This document shows, piece after piece, positions 2,063-20,000 of a stretch of 20,000 nucleotides of DNA (position 1 is the stretch's first letter; each line of letters opens with the position of its first letter). The position numbers and the translations under genes are program-made. Source of the stretch: Chiloscyllium plagiosum (lineage: Eukaryota); the NCBI RefSeq assembly GCF_004010195.1, contig NC_057718.1, forward strand, positions 7,439,893 to 7,459,892, written 5' to 3'. Under the pieces are notes generated by a model that was given only the letters and a program-made list of their open reading frames with translations, searched no databases and was not told the DNA's origin.

Positions 2063-2600
2063 ATAAGCAGTACCTTTAAAGACAATATATGTTAGGGTGT
2101 ATAATTCTGAAGGAGTTACATGAGCAGAGGAATCTGGGTGTCCATGTGTATATATCATTGAAGGTGGCAAGATAGGCAGAGGAAGCAGTAAGTAAAGCAT
2201 ACAGTACTCTCAGTTTCATTAATAGCAGCACAGAGTCCAAGAGCAGGGAGATGAAATTGGACATGTAAGAGACACTTGTTAGATTTTAGCTGGAATATTA
2301 TGTAATATTGCGGGCAACACATTATGGAGAGTGTGCAGAAGCTACTTACAAGGATATTTCCAGGAAAGAGAACTTCAGATATCAGGGTCAGTTGAAGAAC
2401 CTTGGATTGCTCTTTTTGTAAAGAAGAAAGCTGAGAAGAGATTTGATGGAGGTTTTCATCATCATGAACAAGCTGGATAGTGTAGATAGGGAGAAACTGT
2501 TCGTAATCTCGGGGCACAGAATTCAAACGACTTGCAAAAGGAGCAAATATGATGTGAGAAACATTTTTTTCTGTCAATGAGTAATGGGTAAGGAATGCAG

Positions 2601-3242
2601 TAGGGTTAAAGTTAGTCACGGTTTGGGTTACGGCTAGAGTTAGGGTGAGGGTTATGGTTAGGATTAGGGCCAGGGTTAGGGTTAGGGTGAGGATTAGAGC
2701 TAGGACAAGGGTTAGGGTGAGAGTTATGGCCAGGGTTAGGGTTAGGGCTCGAGCAAATGTAAAGATTAAGGTTAAGGTCAAGGTTAGGGTTAGGGCTAGG
2801 GCAAGGTTAGGATTAGAGTTACGGCCAGGGTTGGGGTTAGGGCTAGAGCATGGATTAGAATTAGGGTTAAGGTCAAGGTTAGTGTTAGGGCTAAGGCAAA
2901 GGCTAGGTTTAAGGTCAGGGGTTAGGGATAAGGTTAGGGCTAGGATTGAGGTTAGAGTTTGGGTTAAGGTTGGGGTTCGGTTTAGGGTTTGGATCAGGAT
3001 TTGGGCTAAGGTTAGGTTCAGTGTTAGAGTTACAGGTCATGTTAGGATTAGGGTTAGGGTTAGGGCTGCTATAGGGGTTAGGGTTAGGGTTGTGTTTAGG
3101 GTTAGGACCAGGGTTAGGGTTAGGGTTAGGGTTAGAGTTAGGTTTGGATTAGGGTTAGGGTTAGGTTTCACACCAGAGTTAGGGTTTGGGTTAGGGCTCA
3201 GATTGAGTTTAGAGTTAAGACTGGAGTTGGGGTTAGGGTTCG
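2601..3242 (+). repeat. Degenerate interstitial telomeric repeat (TTAGGG)n, ~640 bp
   Basis: About 105 hexamers of TTAGGG and variants (TTAGGA, CTAGGG, TTAAGG, TTTGGG, TTAGAG, CCAGGG); pure runs e.g. ~3111-3133. Confidence 0.95.
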
Positions 3243-3426
3243 GCACTGCCTGGGAAATGTGGTGAGTGCAAGTTCAATTAAAGTGTTCACCAGGACATTG
3301 AATGGATAGTTTGAATAGAAATAACATACACCGGTTGGGGTGAAGGTAGGAGATAATGTGACTTTAGTTAATGATGCTCATTTAAAGAACCGATGTACAC
3401 ATGATGGGCTGAATGGCCTCTATGTA

Positions 3427-4679: not shown

Positions 4680-5040
4680 TAGTTGCCTATCATCAAAACA
4701 TCATGGCTGATCATGCAATCTCAGTATCCCATTCCCGCTTTCTCTCCATACCCCTTGATCCCTTTAGCCATGAGGGCCACATCCAACTTCCTCTTGAATG
4801 TATCTAACGACCTGGCCCCAACAGCTTCCTGTGGGAGAGAATTCCACAGGTTCACCATTCTCTGAGTGAAGACATTCTTCCTCATCTCAGTCCTGAATGG
4901 CCTACCCCTTATTCTTAGACTGTGACCCGTAGTTCTGGACTTCCCCAACATGAGGAACATTCTTCTTGGATCTAGCCTGTCCAATCCCATTGGGATTTTA
5001 TAGGTTTAGGCGAGGTCCCCCCACATTCTTCTAAATTCCA
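4680..5040 (-). mobile_element. CR1 LINE 3' end
   Basis: ORF 4721-4990 encodes SRTTGHSLRIRGRPFRTEMRKNVFTQRMVNLWNSLPQEAV, the typical CR1 ORF2 C-terminus. Confidence 0.9.
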
Positions 5041-5884: not shown

Positions 5885-6365
5885 GAGGTGAGTCAGACAT
5901 GGCTGAAGACTCTGTCTATCACAGTGAGGGGGTTTCTCAATCGAGGATCAGATTGATATTGGAGGTAGTCTGGTGGATGAAGGCATCATCAGAACAGATG
6001 CAAAGGAGAGGGAGACACTGGGAAACTGGAATGGAACAAACATAGGAACTGTCGGAGAAATTCAGCAGGTCTGGCAGCATCTGTGGAGAGGGAGAGAGAG
6101 ACACACTTAATGTTTGTAGTCTGACAGGACTCTTCTTCAGAACTAGAATGGTATCTTTGCAGGAAGCAGGGAGTGAGGAGGCGCAGTTAAGGAAACTGTG
6201 AAAATGGCTTGGCTACTCATGGACATTGGTAGCCTATCCTCAGAAAGGGAAACAGTGATGCCAAGGAAGGGAAGCCAATAGTCAGAGCTTGACCAGGTGA
6301 AGGTGAGAGAACGATGGTATTTAGAAGCAAAACTGATTAATTTTTCCAATTCTAGATGAAAGTGT
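5885..6365 (-). pseudogene. Decayed Penelope-like RT fragment
   Basis: EKLISFASKYHRSLTFTWSSSDYWLPFLGITVSLSEDRL aligns with EQLINFTNTFHPDLKFTWTISDTSLPFLDLSISINDDRL of the 14178 ORF. After the insertion it continues as IPVSQCLPLLCICS (cf. IPYPQFLRLRRINS). Confidence 0.8.
6035..6144 (-). mobile_element. Solo PLE terminal unit of a third family with decayed hammerhead
   Basis: Minus strand reads agtt-CTGAAGA-A-GAGTC-ctgtca-GACTA-CAAA-CA-TT-aa...ctctccacagatgctgccagacctgctgaattt. Flanked by aactggaatgg (6024-6034) / aactagaatgg (6141-6151). Confidence 0.65.
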
Positions 6366-6574
6366 CATGCAGACCTCCTTTCTGGTGTTCTCCAGAGATA
6401 TAAACACCACAGTAATGTTCCTTTTCTTCACGAACCTCTCCAGATGGATATTTGATCACCAGATCGGTACGACATGTCAAAACTCCAAAATATGATAGCA
6501 AAGCTTGAATTATTTACCTTGTTAACTTACTGCTCAGTGAAGAGCTCAGTCACAGCAACGGCATCGGTGGCAGT

Positions 6575-7195
6575 GAGTATGCCCAGCACTATGGGCTCTA
6601 GTGGGCCCAGTAGTATGGACTTGAGTAGACCCAGCAGCACAGACTCAAGTAGGCTCAGCAGCATGGACTCGAGTGGACCCAGCAGCAAATACTTGAGTGA
6701 GCCCGGCAGTATAGACTCAAGTAGACCCAGCAGTGTAGATTCAAGTAGGCCCAGCTGTATGGACCAGAGTAGGCCCAGCAGCAAATACTTGTGTAGGCCC
6801 AGCAGTTTAGTCTCAAGTAGGACCAGCAACATGGACCCTAGTGGGCCCAGCAGCACGTACTCAAGTGGGCTCAGCAGTAGACACTCAAATAGGCCCAGCA
6901 GTATAGACTCAAGTAGGTCCAGCAGCATGGACTCGAGTGGGCACAGCAGCAAATACTTGAGTGGGCCCAGCAGTATGGACCAGAGAAGGCTCAGCAGTAT
7001 GGACTCAAGTAGGCCCAACAGCACATACTCAAGTGGGCCCAACCGCACATACTCAAGTGGGCCCAGCAGTAGAGAGTCAAAAAGGCCCAGCAGTAGACTC
7101 AAGTAGGCCCAGCAGCATGGACCCAAGTAGGCCTAGCAGCATGGACTCGAGTTGGCCAAGCAGCATGGACTCGAGTAGGCCCAGCAGCATGGATA
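6575..7195. repeat. 24-bp minisatellite (consensus ~AAGTAGGCCCAGCAGCATGGACTC), about 25 copies
   Basis: Direct tandem periodicity. Translates as (SSRPSSMD)n on + and (LLGPLESM)n on -. Confidence 0.92.
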
Positions 7196-8689
7196 CGTGG
7201 CGGTGGCATCAGAAGTGGGTTTGGGCCCAGTATAACACCCTGTGGCATCATCAGTGGCTGCAGAAGGCAAGGTGGGCCTGAAGCACACTCTTGGCAGTGG
7301 CAGAGTCGAGTTTGGGCCATTTCAAAACTCAGCAGCATCAGTGGTGTCTGCATTGGTGAGGTCCAGTGAGGACTCAGTGGGGGGGGGGGGAGGTGTCAGT
7401 GGAGATGATATGGCACTGACGGGTGACACCTTTCATTCCAGTGACAGTGACATCGCAAAGGGGACTCCTGGCTGGTCACCAGGTCCATGGCCTAGTGATG
7501 GAGCACTTAACAAGAAAGCTCCAAGAGTTGTTGACCAGGTAAAGGGTGCGGAGTGTATCCCCTCCTTTATAACATCCCTCTTCATTACAAGTGACACTTG
7601 TATTTCATTCCAGCTTTGGTCTACTACACCTGAATGAAATGGTGTTAAGCAGATCAGTCATAAAAATAAGTTAATTTCAAAGTTTTCTTGAATGGAAGAG
7701 AGAGGGATTTAAATTCTTATTACTTTCCAAAAATATTAAAACAACACCAAACACCTGCAAGCAAACCCAGGCAATAAGCTTACAAAGAAGTGGGGTGCCT
7801 ATTACAGACAGGAAGTTAAAAGCAATTGTAGTTTGCATTTCTAAAGAGTCCCTAAGGGTTTAGATTATAAATTAGTATCCTAACTGTATAACAGTTATTT
7901 TGCTTCTTCATCAATGATAAATATAGGTTTAATCTACAACCTTCTTGTGGAGGCACCCGTAGATAGCAGAGTTCATAATATAATTGAATTTCACATTCAA
8001 TTTGAGGGAGAGATGTTTGGGTCCAAGACTAGTATTTTAAAATTAAATAAGGGCAATTATGGAGGCATGAATACAAAGCTGGCTAATGTGAATTAACAAT
8101 TTGGTTAAAGGATAAGTTAATAGAGATACCTGTGGGAGACATTGAAGGGGATACTTCAGACTACAAAGAATAGAAACATTCAAATGGATAATAATTATTC
8201 CTAGATGAAGTTACAGCCTTTGGTTAGCTAGAAATATTTCAAACTTAAAGCAACAGCATACAATTGTGCAAAGGTAGATGGCCGAAGATTGATTAGTATA
8301 CAAAGAAAAAGACTGAAAATTAATGAGGGAAAAATTAGAGTATGTGAGAAAGTTAGTCAGAAATATAAGAATAGATAATAAGAGTTTCTATGCTTACTGA
8401 AAAGAAAAGGCAAACTGGACATTGACCCTATGGAAAGTGAGACTTCAGAACTGATCGTGCAAAATAAAAGGAGGCAAATAAAAGGAAGCATATTCTTCAT
8501 TTTTGATAATGGAGGATGCAAGTAACATCCCAAAAGTAGTGATTCATTCAGAAATGGAAGGAAGGGAGAAACAGAAGAAAAATAGATTCAGAGAAGTGGC
8601 CAAGCAGAGGCTGATAGCCAAGTTTGGTACCCAGAGGGATGGCTTCAGTTGGGACCTTGGGTTCATGTCACACTACAGGTGACCCCACT

Positions 8690-8930
8690 ACACTATACAC
8701 TCTCTCTCTCTCTCTCTCACAGTCACACACAAACACACATACACGCACACACCGACAGACCCGACAGAGATCATACACAAGATCTCTCTCATACACTCAC
8801 ACATATACACCCACACATGCACCCTCTCGCAGACTTATACTCCTTTACACTCACACTCACACGTATACATAGACACTCATACCCCTCCCCCCCCCTCCCC
8901 CACACACACACACACACATATGTGTATGTT
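8690..8930 (+). repeat. (CT)n/(CA)n-rich compound microsatellite inside the PLE 3' region
   Basis: tctctctctctctctctc followed by degenerate (ca)n tracts. Confidence 0.9.
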
Positions 8931-9302
8931 TGTGGGGTGAATTTGTATTTGCAGAATTATATTTTATTTTGCTCAAAAACTGCATGAATCCATGTAAGAA
9001 AATGTAAATCCCTTTTTTAGAAATAGAATCAGTTTGAACATTGGGGCACAGACAGCCTCACACAGGGCACCTCACACCTTCAATGCATTATCTAAGCCAA
9101 CATGGCACCTATTGTTAAAGTTCACTTGAGAATGTTACTTTAAAACAAATTTCTGGGATTTACATATGAAAGAACTGAAACCACCATGGTCATTCTAAAA
9201 GATGAGAGACTTAACAAACAATCCAGGTCTTTTTCAATACATTGCATCACGCTGTAAACTTTTGCTATAAATTCTGCATCTTACAATCTTATGCTCCACA
9301 AC

Positions 9303-9337
9303 CACCTGATGAAGGAGCAGCGCCCCGAAAGCTAGTG
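9303..9337 (+). ncRNA. Minimal type I hammerhead ribozyme motif
   Basis: CAC-CTGATGA-A-GGAGC-agc-GCCCC-GAAA-GC-TA-GTG: stem I CAC/GTG, stem II with one mismatch, palindromic AGCT in place of stem III. Confidence 0.75.
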
Positions 9338-9379
9338 CCTCCAAATAAACTGGCTCCTCTACATCAGAGAAGTGGGACT

Positions 9380-9624
9380 GCAACTTTTTCACACAGAGGG
9401 TGGTACGTGTATGGAATGAGCTGCCAGAGGATGTGGTGGAGGCTGGTACAATTGCAACATTTAAGAGGCATTTGGATGGGTATATGAATAGGAAGGGTTT
9501 GGAGGTATATGGACCGGGTGCTGGCAGGTGGGACTAGTTTGGGTTGGGATATCTGGTCAGCATGGAGGGGTTGGACCGATGGGTCTGTTTCCATGCTGTA
9601 CATCTCTATGACTCTATGACTCTA
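9380..9624 (+). mobile_element. Younger CR1 3' tail insertion
   Basis: FFTQRVVRVWNELPEDVVEAGTIATFKRHLDGYMNRKG reading, with a (ctatgact)n tail. Confidence 0.9.
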
Positions 9625-12450: not shown

Positions 12451-12670
12451 ATTTGGAGATGCCAGTGTTGGACTGGGGTGTACAAAGCTAAAAATCACAC
12501 AACACCAGGTTATAGTCCAACAGGTTTAATTGGAAGCACACTAGCTTTCGGAGCGACGCTCCTTCATCAATTGTGTCCTCCACAATCACCTGATGAAGGA
12601 GCACCGAAAGCTAGTGTGCTTCCAATTAAACCTGCTGGACTATAACCTGGTGTTGTGTGATTTTTAGCTT
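12451..12670. mobile_element. Head-to-head inverted pair of PLE terminal repeats, each with a hammerhead core
   Basis: Arms ~12484-12575 and 12581-12671 are reverse complements. TSD tatctgcctcctg (12438-12450) / tatcagcctcctg (12671-12683). Same family as 9290-9350. Confidence 0.88.
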
Positions 12671-13396: not shown

Positions 13397-13645
13397 TTTT
13401 CCCCTCATGGGGGCATTTATGACCAGAAGGCACGGTCTCAGAATAAAGGGCTGCCAATTTAAGACTGAGATGAGGAGGAATTTCTTCTGTCAGAGGGTTG
13501 AGAGACTTTGGAACTCTTTGCCGCAGAGAGCTGTGGGGACAGAGCCCTTGTGTATATTTAAGGCTGAGGTAGATTGATTCTTGATCTGTCGGGGAATGCA
13601 AGATAATTGGGAAAAGGCAGGAAAGTGGACGTGAGGGATGTCAGA
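13397..13645 (+). mobile_element. CR1 LINE 3' end
   Basis: TRRHGLRIKGCQFKTEMRRNFFCQRVERLWNSLPQRAV. Confidence 0.9.
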
Positions 13646-14018
13646 ACTGATCCGCCTCTTTGGGAAGCTTTCCCTTAATCCTTAGCCCTTCCCCATCAGA
13701 GGAAGTCATTGATCTGTCCTATCGAATCTTTTGCTGATCTTAAAAACCTGAGTTCACGGAGATTGAGTGCTTGTTGATAGCAGTGGAGACATTCCAAACA
13801 GGAAGTTACATTTGTGCTGCCTCAGATGTTCAATTCCGCCCAACAGAGAGACAACTATCCATGTCTCTGCTGACAGACTGTAATATGTATTAATTTCCCA
13901 CTTGTATATGAATGAAGCTGTGGAGTTTCTCCTCTGTTTCTGCAACCACTTATATTTGCACTATTGTATATAACACAGGACTTTGTCAGTACATCTCGCA
14001 CTAGGATAAACTATTCTC

Positions 14019-14863
14019 TCAGCATGCTCCTGCCCCACTGAACTCATCTCTACCTACCTCGACACCCTCCTATCCCCCCTAGTCCAGGAACTCCCCACAT
14101 ACATTCGAGACACCACCCACACCCTCCACCTTCTCCAAGACTTCCGTTTCCCCGGCCCCCAATGCCTCATCTTCACCATGGATATCCAATCCCTCTCCAC
14201 CTCTATCCGCCATGACCAGGGCCTCCAAGCCCTCCGTTTTATCCTCTCCCGACGTTCCCAACAGTACCCTTCCACAAACACTCTCGTTTGTTTGGCCAAA
14301 CTGGTCCTCACCCTTAACAATTTCTCCTTCGAATCCTCCCACTTCCTCCAGACCAAAGGGGTAGCCATGGGCACATGTATGGGCCCCAGCTATGCCTGTC
14401 TCTTTGTTGGCTACGTAGAGCAGTTGATCTTCCGTAATTACACCGGCGTCACTCCCCACCTCTTCCTCCGCTACATTGATGACTGCATTGGTGCCACGTT
14501 GTGCTCCCGCGAGGAGGTTGAGCAACTCATCAACTTCACCAACACATTCCACCCTGACCTTAAATTTACCTGGACCATCTCTGACACCTCCCTCCCCTTC
14601 CTGGACCTTTCCATCTCCATTAATGACGACCGACTTGACACTGACATTTCCTACAAACCCACCGACTCCCACAGCTACCTGGATTACACCTCTTCCCACC
14701 CTACCTCTTGCAAAAATGCCATCCCGTATCCCCAATTCCTCCGCCTCCGCCGTATCAACTCCCAGGAGGAGCGGTTCCACCATAAAACACACCAGATGGC
14801 CTCCTTCTTTACAGACCGCAATTTCCCTTCCCACGTGGTTAAAGATGCCCCCCAACGCATCTC
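14019..14863 (+). CDS. Penelope-like reverse transcriptase, partial; open frame runs into the gap
   Basis: Stop-free from SACSCPTELISTYLD through TMDIQSL, QTKGVAMGTCMGPSYACLF, RYIDD, LKFT, LPFLD, YKPTDSHSYLDYTSSHP, all PLE RT motifs. Confidence 0.9.
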
Positions 14864-15445
14864 NNNNNNNNNNNNNNNNNNNNNNNNNNNNNNNNNNNNN
14901 NNNNNNNNNNNNNNNNNNNNNNNNNNNNNNNNNNNNNNNNNNNNNNNNNNNNNNNNNNNNNNNNNNNNNNNNNNNNNNNNNNNNNNNNNNNNNNNNNNNN
15001 NNNNNNNNNNNNNNNNNNNNNNNNNNNNNNNNNNNNNNNNNNNNNNNNNNNNNNNNNNNNNNNNNNNNNNNNNNNNNNNNNNNNNNNNNNNNNNNNNNNN
15101 NNNNNNNNNNNNNNNNNNNNNNNNNNNNNNNNNNNNNNNNNNNNNNNNNNNNNNNNNNNNNNNNNNNNNNNNNNNNNNNNNNNNNNNNNNNNNNNNNNNN
15201 NNNNNNNNNNNNNNNNNNNNNNNNNNNNNNNNNNNNNNNNNNNNNNNNNNNNNNNNNNNNNNNNNNNNNNNNNNNNNNNNNNNNNNNNNNNNNNNNNNNN
15301 NNNNNNNNNNNNNNNNNNNNNNNNNNNNNNNNNNNNNNNNNNNNNNNNNNNNNNNNNNNNNNNNNNNNNNNNNNNNNNNNNNNNNNNNNNNNNNNNNNNN
15401 NNNNNNNNNNNNNNNNNNNNNNNNNNNNNNNNNNNNNNNNNNNNN
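14864..15445. other. Assembly gap (582 N)
   Basis: Run of n. Confidence 1.
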
Positions 15446-15493
15446 CCCACCCTCCTCTAGCTTATCTCTCCACGCTTCAGACTCTCTGCCTTT

Positions 15494-15528
15494 ATTCCTG
15501 ATGAAGGGCTTTTCCCGAAACGTCGATT
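15494..15528 (+). ncRNA. Minimal type I hammerhead ribozyme motif in the PLE terminal repeat
   Basis: attc-CTGATGA-A-GGG-ctttt-CCC-GAAA-CG-TC-gatt: intact core, palindromic ACGT, predicted GUC cleavage after 15524. Confidence 0.78.
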
Positions 15529-15699
15529 TTACTGCTCCTTAGATGCTGCCTGAACTGCTGTGCTCTTGCAGCACCACTAATCCAAATTCAGGTTTCCAGC
15601 ATCTGCAGTCATTGTTTTTACCTAAACTATTCCACCCTGTCTTCACGGTGTCCTACAGCTGACTGCAAATGTCACTGTTACTTTGGAATGTACCTACCT

Positions 15700-15897
15700 C
15701 TCCACTTAAAGGAGAAGGTAAGGTTTCCATAGACCAAGCAGACCTGAGGGTCATCATGTGTTAGGCAAGGAATGAGGTTGAGATGGCAGGGTCTTCATGG
15801 TAACCATAACCTTCCAGGCCATATGGGAATGGAACCCACCCTGTTGATTTCACTGTGCATCACAAACCTGAAGTCCAGCCAACTGAGCTAACCAACT
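15700..15897 (-). mobile_element. tRNA-derived SINE, decayed
   Basis: Minus strand begins agttggttagctcagttggctgga (A box) and has gggttccattccc (B-box-like). Confidence 0.65.
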
Positions 15898-15944
15898 CGC
15901 AACATCCAAGGCCATGAGCAGTCACATTCTTTTTTAAAGACTTC

Positions 15945-16408
15945 TTTTAATACGCTCAGAGGACGAGGGCATCTCTGGCCAAGCCAACATTCATTGTCCA
16001 TCCCTAATTGCCCAAGAAGCAGTTGAGAATCACCCACATTGCTGTGGGTCTAAAGTAGGCCAGACCCCCTGGTGAGGATGGCAGATTTCCTCGCCTAAAG
16101 ACCTTTAGTGAACCAGATGGGTATTTTTGGCCCCCCTGACGATCAACAATAGCTTCATAGTTATTGTCAGATTTCTTATTCCAGACTTTCATTAAATGCA
16201 AACCTCACAATTTGCCATGGTGGGATTCGAACTGAAGTCCCCAGAACATTACCTGGGTGTATGGATGAATAGGTTAGATCAGAGTGGTGCTGGAAATGCA
16301 GAGCAGGTCAGGCAGCATCGGAGAAGCAGGAAAATCGGCTTTTCAGGCAAAAGCCCTTCATCATGAATTAATACTCTAGCGATAAGGCCACTAGGTCATC
16401 ACCTCCCC
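15945..16408 (-). mobile_element. SINE with LINE-derived tail, interrupted by a PLE solo unit
   Basis: Minus strand starts gggaggtgatgacctagtgg, has B box agttcgaatccc, and a tail gggcaattagggatggacaatgaatgttggcttggccagagatgccc resembling the LINE tail at 1625-1700. Confidence 0.7.
16272..16368 (-). mobile_element. Solo PLE terminal unit with inactivated hammerhead
   Basis: Homologous to 1140-1222 and 15494-15585. Minus strand reads attc-ATGATGA-AGGGcttttgCCT-GAAAAGCC-gattt. Confidence 0.8.
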
Positions 16409-16864: not shown

Positions 16865-17340
16865 AGACATAGAGTCATACAGTTATATAGCATGGAAACA
16901 GACCTTTCGGTCCAAGTCATCCACGCTGACCAGATATCCTAAATTAATCTCGTCCCATTTGCTAGCATTTGGCCCATATCCATCGAAACTCTTCCTATTC
17001 ATTTAGCTATCCAGATGCCTTTTAAATGGTGTCATTGTGCCAGCCTCCACCATTTCCTCTGGCAAGTCATTCTACACACGCAACACCCTCTGCATGAAAA
17101 AGTTGTCCCTGGGGTCCATTTTAAACCTTTCCTCTCTCACCTTAAACCTATGCCTTCTAGTTTTGAACTCCCCTAACTCTGGGTAAAAGACTTTGGCTAT
17201 TCACCCTATCCCTTCATGATTTTATAAACCTCTATAAGGTCACCCCCTCAGCCTCCGACACTCCAGGGAAAATAGCCTCAGCCTATATAGCCGCTCCATG
17301 TAGCTCAAAACCTCCAACCCTGGCAACATTTTTGTAAATT
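16865..17340 (-). mobile_element. CR1 LINE 3' end
   Basis: Reverse-complement homologue of 9380-9624; catagagtcat tail at the left end. Confidence 0.9.
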
Positions 17341-19699: not shown

Positions 19700-20000
19700 G
19701 GGAAATGCCTTGAAGAAGTTTTCCTCCTCTCTCTACAAGAATCTCAGGGAGTCCCTCTCCCACTGCAACTCCCAGGTCATTTCCTCTGCCCTGAAACCCT
19801 TCAACCATATCCTGAAACAAACTTGCCTCATTTCCCTTTCCCCCACCTCACCCTCGTTCCAAACTTCCAGATCAGCACTGTCCCCATTACTTGTCCGGAC
19901 TTGTCCTACCTGCCTATCTCCTTTTCCACCTATCCACTCCACCCTCTTCTCCCTGACCTATCACCTTCATCCCCTCCCCCACTCACCCATTGTACTCTAT
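19700..20000 (+). mobile_element. Probable Penelope-derived fragment (pyrimidine-rich 3' region), running out of the window
   Basis: C/T-rich + strand of the same composition as 14030-14860 and 15446-15495. No diagnostic motif lies inside the window. Confidence 0.5.

Follow-up and report, generated by a model that had tools for sequence, protein, structure and literature searches.

Evidence for an old, 5'-truncated insertion of a very abundant Penelope-like element family in a bamboo-shark-like genome

The 20,000-nt stretch of DNA analysed here (the window), from a bamboo-shark-like genome, very probably carries a single old insertion from a Penelope-like element (PLE) family that is very abundant, endonuclease-positive and of the Neptune/Nematis type. 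The copy lies between the two halves of an exact 10-bp target-site duplication (TSD), its junctions coincide with limits of the family, and it is found in two organisms. It is truncated at its 5' end and carries a load of private mutations. The features are collected in Table 1.

Table 1. Parts of the inserted copy and the short related units, in window coordinates
Feature	Position	Strand	Remarks
Left TSD copy	14007..14016	+	last bases 14013-14015 (ATT) match family too
5'-truncated PLE reverse transcriptase (RT)	14017..14863	+	begins within GRPIVS motif; thumb region; open, many private missense changes
Assembly gap	14864..15445	.	582 N
Gap span in the family		 	thumb end, CX4CXXC linker, GIY-YIG endonuclease, most of 3' UTR; about 846-861 nt
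3' UTR / pseudo-LTR end, pyrimidine-rich	15446..15497	+	15494-15497 = helix I 5' strand
Minimal type I hammerhead core	15498..15524	+	motif; GTC 15522-15524, predicted cut after 15524
Helix I 3' strand and remaining pseudo-LTR	15525..15590	+	many family copies end near 15590
Probable optional tail	15591..15622	+	32-33 nt; T at 15623 possibly shared with target
Right TSD copy	15623..15632	+	repeat search of window
Short hammerhead-core units	253-380, 1094-1221, 6035-6140, 16271-16362	-	

Results

The open frame belongs to an endonuclease-bearing PLE family

The frame at 14010-14863 (forward strand) runs through 284 codons without a stop. Its first two to three codons are target DNA, and the stop that precedes them lies inside the left TSD copy. 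The fragment retains the catalytic aspartates D58, D157 and D158 and matches RVT_1 at E 9e-5, short of the curated cut-off. Searches at E<=1e-10 returned 128 longer homologous proteins, headed by proteins labelled Chiloscyllium punctatum (90% and 87% identity), with named marine invertebrate proteins among the remainder at 33-60%. The predicted RT fold (pLDDT 92.5) has telomerase as its top structural match (E 8e-8), narrowly ahead of retron RTs (2.5e-7). A PDB sequence search with a single RT protein gave no hits; the family profile gave three weak matches there and weakly matched an intron GIY-YIG endonuclease (E 0.018).

The C-terminal part of a zebra-shark relative, used as a query, recovered 59 proteins, P0125 included. 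Over the RT, P0125 shares 85% identity with the fragment; it then reads on through a CX4CXXC linker, found also in P0122, P0123 and P0124, into a GIY-YIG region. Among 171 stored relatives, 129 extend at least 200 residues beyond the point where the frame enters the gap; a CX2-5CxxC linker is present in 121 of these 129 and a GIY-YIG pattern in 101. The CCHH motif (two Cys in the GIY-YIG pattern and two downstream His), scored at family level with a loose pattern, occurs in 99 of the 101, and DKG in 86 of the 90 relatives with enough upstream sequence. Pfam GIY-YIG matched three relatives at E 2e-5 to 2e-3, one of them above the cut-off. The many homologues that combine RT with GIY-YIG, the DKG motif and the telomerase-first fold support the frame as a PLE reverse transcriptase, as the sequence-only reading had proposed, and P0125 bears out its view that the family carries an endonuclease.

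Judged by sequence at the level of the family, the linker and the CCHH motif mark it as endonuclease-positive and of the Neptune/Nematis type; the CX2-5CxxC linker is described as a mark of those two clades (PMC8557442). We prefer Neptune to Nematis because Neptune is reported in vertebrates. Minimal hammerheads are reported in fish Xena, Poseidon and Neptune elements (PMC4209133), and a PLE expansion is reported for the whale shark (10.1101/443036). Our literature search found nothing on this particular family, nor on PLE families or hammerheads of this shark genus; Repbase or Dfam may already catalogue the family. A metagenome protein search gave 214 pattern matches, none of them confirmed.

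The assembly gap is too short for the family sequence

The gap has room for 194 codons, fewer than the 198-274 (median 217) required, before any 3' UTR, by every one of the 90 relatives whose terminal motif could be scored. A fill drawn from the family consists of the 257 codons of P0125 between gap entry and the point matching window 19942, 58 nt from there to the window end and 17 nt from the loose contig end at 15446. This gives ~846 nt, or 861 nt with a 5-codon indel allowed. In the zebra-shark relative, the read-through to the hammerhead takes 1026 nt, against 633 in the window. By these comparisons the gap appears about 265-280 nt short of the family's endonuclease and 3' UTR. Being ~270 nt too short, it is either underestimated in size or part of an internally deleted copy. 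We consider it likely that the GIY-YIG endonuclease is present in part inside the gap.

A second piece of the family lies at 19703-20000 on the forward strand. Its segment 19793-19942 aligns with P0125 in the C-terminal read-through (E 2e-9), and the window end (20000) with the part of the family 3' UTR that directly precedes 15446. The segment 19703-19815 may, to judge from its sequence, be the N-terminus of the ORF, which would make 19703-20000 an internally deleted copy; as an ORF head it scored E 2.4, without statistical support.

Scaffold gap sizes are estimates, and the other gap in the window is a round 500 N, both of which weigh against taking 582 at face value. None of the contigs in the three runs that we used (X1, X5 and X10, aligned to 13500-16200 at 88% likeness) spans the gap. 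Both gap edges, at loose ends 14863 and 15446 among those listed, run on into it as normal family sequence, possibly from other copies, and this too argues against a deletion. A correct gap size, with a loss of ~270 nt that took part of the endonuclease or of the 3' UTR, is nonetheless a possibility that we entertain tentatively. It would account for 582 N where the family has about 846-861 nt. It would also agree with the second piece, which appears to join the ORF head straight to the 3' UTR, and with the microhomology deletions described in PLE copies (PMC3846280).

The pseudo-LTR holds a hammerhead motif followed by a probable tail

Loose-end figures here and below are those among the 18 rows listed, beside 3656 further. 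Among them, the family breaks into unrelated sequence at two places. The first lies at ~15584-15591, where 168 and 265 records stop at 15584 and 94 at 15591, and the second at 15623 (117, 99 and 157 records per DNA run). The spacing of the two ends, ~33 nt, fits the optional 30-40-nt PLE tail (PMC8557442, PMC11167929, PMC3846280); two 3' ends in a PLE have been explained by two internal RT start sites (PMC11167929).

The core reads CTGATGA-A-GGG-CTTTT-CCC-GAAA-CG-TC. It has the extra A after A9, G10.1-C11.1, a palindromic ACGU (15.2-16.2) and no helix III, traits of the minimal type I hammerheads of PLE pseudo-LTRs, which are treated as established (PMC6155905). To this extent the motif first noticed by eye stands. 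It had been described as terminal, which is incorrect: 98 nt of element follow the GTC. Rfam hammerhead models gave no match, either in the window at E<=5 or in 15446-15660 at E<=10, and the call consequently rests on the full core motif as read from the sequence. Helix II is 3 bp with a 5-nt loop. With the cut after 15524, helix I would pair C-G, U-A and A-U around a U-U mismatch before the last pair (2 contiguous pairs + 1), and the palindromic ACGU could form helix III in a dimer only.

The minimum-energy fold pairs 15489-15496 with 15500-15507, hiding the core, and forcing hammerhead helices I and II costs 6.9 kcal/mol relative to it; folding of the 3' region is modestly stronger than that of shuffled sequences (z -2.3). 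A consensus fold of four window copies recovered neither hammerhead helix, and compensatory change was seen in 0 of 15 pairs. The hammerhead pattern was found at 22 loci in metagenome contigs and in 0 viral contigs. Seven of the loci have PLE protein matches (L005, L009, L016, L018, L020, L021, L022), and none has DNA similarity to the shark element, so that they could not be used for covariation.

It is possible to imagine the lone hammerhead as an active self-cleaving site in host read-through transcripts, given that its core nucleotides and the palindromic ACGU are all intact and that minimal PLE hammerheads cleave weakly in vitro when engineered or multimeric (PMC4209133). We regard this as unlikely. 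Single minimal PLE hammerheads showed no in vitro cleavage in the same study (PMC4209133), and the motif of the anole PLE cleaved only with the element's protein and left no RNA-seq ends at the cut site (PMC11167929). Here, only 2 pairs of helix I are contiguous, and helix II is formed by 3 pairs against 4 in the sister unit 253-380. The motif lacks a neighbouring partner copy, its helix I is weak and a hairpin competes with it, so that most likely no cutting takes place at this locus. By analogy with those systems, the motif probably works in tandem active copies, either dimerized or assisted by the element's protein.

Short units in the window are sister subfamilies

Three of the short units (253-380, 1094-1221 and 16271-16362) are 79-83% identical to the element's 3' part and have different tails, which makes them sister subfamilies and not offspring of this copy. 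The proposed partnership between the element and the short units is thus not upheld. The units 253-380 and 1094-1221, and the more distant 6035-6140, are flanked by repeats of 11-12 nt with one mismatch, and such TSD-like flanks point to a greater age. Unit 16271-16362 has a 6-nt flanking repeat only, within chance; random window pairs scored 8 or more for a flanking repeat in ~7 of 296 draws. All four units begin at the very start of the core or up to ~6 nt before it, upstream of the predicted cut, and none begins at the cut site. Two sister units carry one more G in helix II.

Another hammerhead-bearing pseudo-LTR family is represented at 12451-12670 by a head-to-head inverted pair with 71-nt arms, 97% complementary, which turns at the core and has a 13-nt TSD-like flank with one mismatch. 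The same family occurs at ~8690-9345 (+), with a hammerhead core at 9306 at its end; this stretch is probably the 3' UTR and pseudo-LTR of a second PLE family. An old, broken PLE RT relic at 5940-6460 (-) matches the family profile at E 2e-7 and is interrupted by unit 6035-6140. The window also contains a degenerate TTAGGG-like array of ~640 nt at 2600-3245 (+), an interstitial telomere-like repeat, and a 24-bp tandem repeat of ~27 units at 6530-7215 with an open Ser-rich frame (+) and a Leu-rich frame (-). Dispersed repeats of ~70-80% identity lie at 9381-9621 (+), 16865-17105 (-), 4793-4924 and 13431-13562; we take them to resemble the 3' ends of CR1/L2-type LINEs.

The copy is old and was dead on arrival

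The left junction is crossed by individual contigs of X1 and X5, both from organism A, with 0 differences, and of X10, from organism B, in which 11 of 515 letters are different and 17 are gap letters. At the right junction the contigs of X1, X5 and X10 have 2, 0 and 14 other letters, X10 also having 13 gap letters; these junction contigs carry 30 (left) and 21-23 (right) element letters, under the 31-letter bridging rule. The flanks of the two organisms differ by ~2.6% substitutions (25 in ~980). Since both junctions are present in the second organism, the insertion is older than the split that left this divergence.

Within 14017-14863 the window letter differs from the family contig majority (at least 2 of the three runs) at at least 24 positions, a nucleotide divergence of at least 2.8%. 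The 281 residues compared include 21 private amino-acid changes. Two other shark copies have 5 and 14, and these were chosen as long ORFs, which favours less-mutated copies. Several of the private changes fall in columns conserved at 88-98% (Y63, R94, E97, F173, S241 and C250). Y63 presumably corresponds to the aromatic residue that follows the motif A aspartate and serves RTs in dNTP selection.

Full-length relatives align from residue 382-446, leaving the copy without ~380-445 N-terminal codons. The N-terminal domain, DKG, the first RT motifs, the start codon and the upstream pseudo-LTR are all absent from it, and PLE promoters are reported to reside in the upstream pseudo-LTR (PMC2377424). 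Without a start codon, an N-terminal domain or that promoter, the copy was dead on arrival. It is a dead fossil of an autonomous family that has drifted since insertion, and its 284 codons, still stop-free, limit how old it can be.

The sequence-only reading had called the element a fairly young copy of the autonomous partner of the short units. A young, competent source driving those units would explain the open frame, the kept catalytic aspartates and the exact TSD. It is very improbable in view of the missing codons and pseudo-LTR, the changed conserved residues and an insertion common to a second organism; the short units, moreover, are just 79-83% identical, and three of the four are older by their mismatched flanks. 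The sharing between organisms and the private changes speak against a recent or polymorphic insertion, as the truncation and the altered residues do against autonomy.

The duplication sits at the family's own limits

The 10-mer TAAACTATTC is exactly repeated and occurs, on either strand of the window, solely at the two TSD positions. With 45 boundary offsets allowed for, the probability that such a match arises by chance is 4.8e-5; when position pairs were drawn at random in the window, 22 of 200,000 draws produced one. At the 5' junction there are 3 nt of microhomology, 14013-14015 fitting target and family sequence alike. The family continues upstream from here: among the rows listed, a loose end at 14013 has 23 contig records of run X5. 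The family codons read I-V-S-A where the window has I-L-S-A. The DNA directly upstream of the element is at single-copy depth in the contig runs, and depth over the element is ~1e5-fold above the flanks, a figure that is not a copy number. An empty site, which would show as a joint from 14016 to 15633, was not among the 15 joints listed, beside 323 further. No tandem repeat was found at the element locus.

Because the 10-mers stand at the family's own limits, which contig ends set independently, we read them as a true TSD, in agreement with the initial claim, and a mis-join as unlikely. That an assembler joined two unrelated insertions across the gap is barely credible, for despite the missing gap-spanning contig, the extreme abundance of the family and the misfit in gap size, it would need a chance 10-mer at both ends (p ~5e-5 to 1e-4) as well as the same strand and the same family on both gap sides.

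Discussion

We propose a route of insertion by analogy with what is known of the class. The protein of an active family member would have nicked an A+T-rich site on both strands, 10 nt apart. Of two start points in the pseudo-LTR, the distal one may then have primed reverse transcription, with the result that the tail was included, and the cDNA would have been copied through the hammerhead, which was left uncut, and on through the 3' UTR and the larger part of the ORF. Copying presumably halted early in the RT gene; ~3 nt of microhomology would have allowed the cDNA to join the target, and fill-in would have yielded the 10-bp duplication.

The endonuclease-positive PLEs of Craig et al. 2021 (PMC8557442) are described with the organization that we find in the family, RT + CX2-5CxxC linker + GIY-YIG, and likewise with frequent 5' truncation, a hammerhead pseudo-LTR and an optional 30-40-nt tail. 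The shark copy differs from them in being truncated and mutated, with the endonuclease part within the unread gap. Whereas that source ties the linker to microsatellite targets, the shark element sits in ordinary A+T-rich sequence and has a clean TSD.

The metazoan minimal hammerheads of Cervera and De la Pena 2014 (PMC4209133) are reported with the same lack of helix III, the same extra nucleotide A9/10.1, G10.1-C11.1 and palindromic 15.2-16.2, and occur mostly as single motifs in truncated copies. Their Schistosoma examples have 7-8 bp in helix II and 4-5 bp in helix I, in contrast to 3 bp and 2+1 bp in the shark. Sharks are not named in the passages of that paper used for this comparison; its supplements and those of a 2026 preprint may list shark motifs.

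PAc, the Poseidon element of Anolis carolinensis (Frangieh et al. 2024, PMC11167929), shares with our element two 3' ends one tail apart, an A+T-rich target and cDNA copied through an uncut hammerhead. As described there, however, it belongs to the Poseidon clade, lacks the zinc-finger-like linker that the shark family has, and starts its ORF within the hammerhead. Penelope of Adineta vaga (Arkhipova et al. 2013, PMC3846280) shares 8-10-bp TSDs, a 31-bp tail, 5' junction microhomology and internal deletions. Its copies are usually reported with inverted pseudo-LTRs, whereas the single pseudo-LTR of the shark copy is a direct one. Non-LTR retrozymes (Li et al., bioRxiv 10.64898/2026.07.22.740005) share the type I hammerhead from a PLE pseudo-LTR and are reported from the one chondrichthyan sampled. 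We rejected a retrozyme identity: retrozymes are non-coding tandem repeats, and the shark element has one hammerhead, a coding body and no tandem repeat.

PLE hammerheads, tails and 8-10-bp duplications are already in print, and every feature of the locus is known for PLEs. The locus alone matters little, being one fossil among very many copies. With its tail, exact TSD and 5' microhomology it illustrates a PLE insertion cleanly, and an insertion common to two organisms could serve as a phylogenetic marker. The locus touches on the role of the PLE hammerhead itself, the anole motif having been reported to be dispensable for insertion in vitro (PMC11167929); that role is better approached via the whole family than via a single copy.

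One possible reading of the short units bears on this role. They start at the edge of the core and never at the cut site, and the core is also where the inverted pair turns, thus raising the possibility that they are run-off cDNAs of the 5' ends of PLE transcripts and not a separate parasite family or random truncations, an interpretation of five units to which we give limited credence. No more firmly, we suggest that RT might start at the tail site in the upstream pseudo-LTR and stop at the transcription start just before the core. If true, the shark hammerhead would stay uncut during retrotransposition, held by the hairpin at 15489-15507, and would mark the 5' end of the RNA; start site, tail choice and ribozyme timing would then be measurable from shark genomic fossils.
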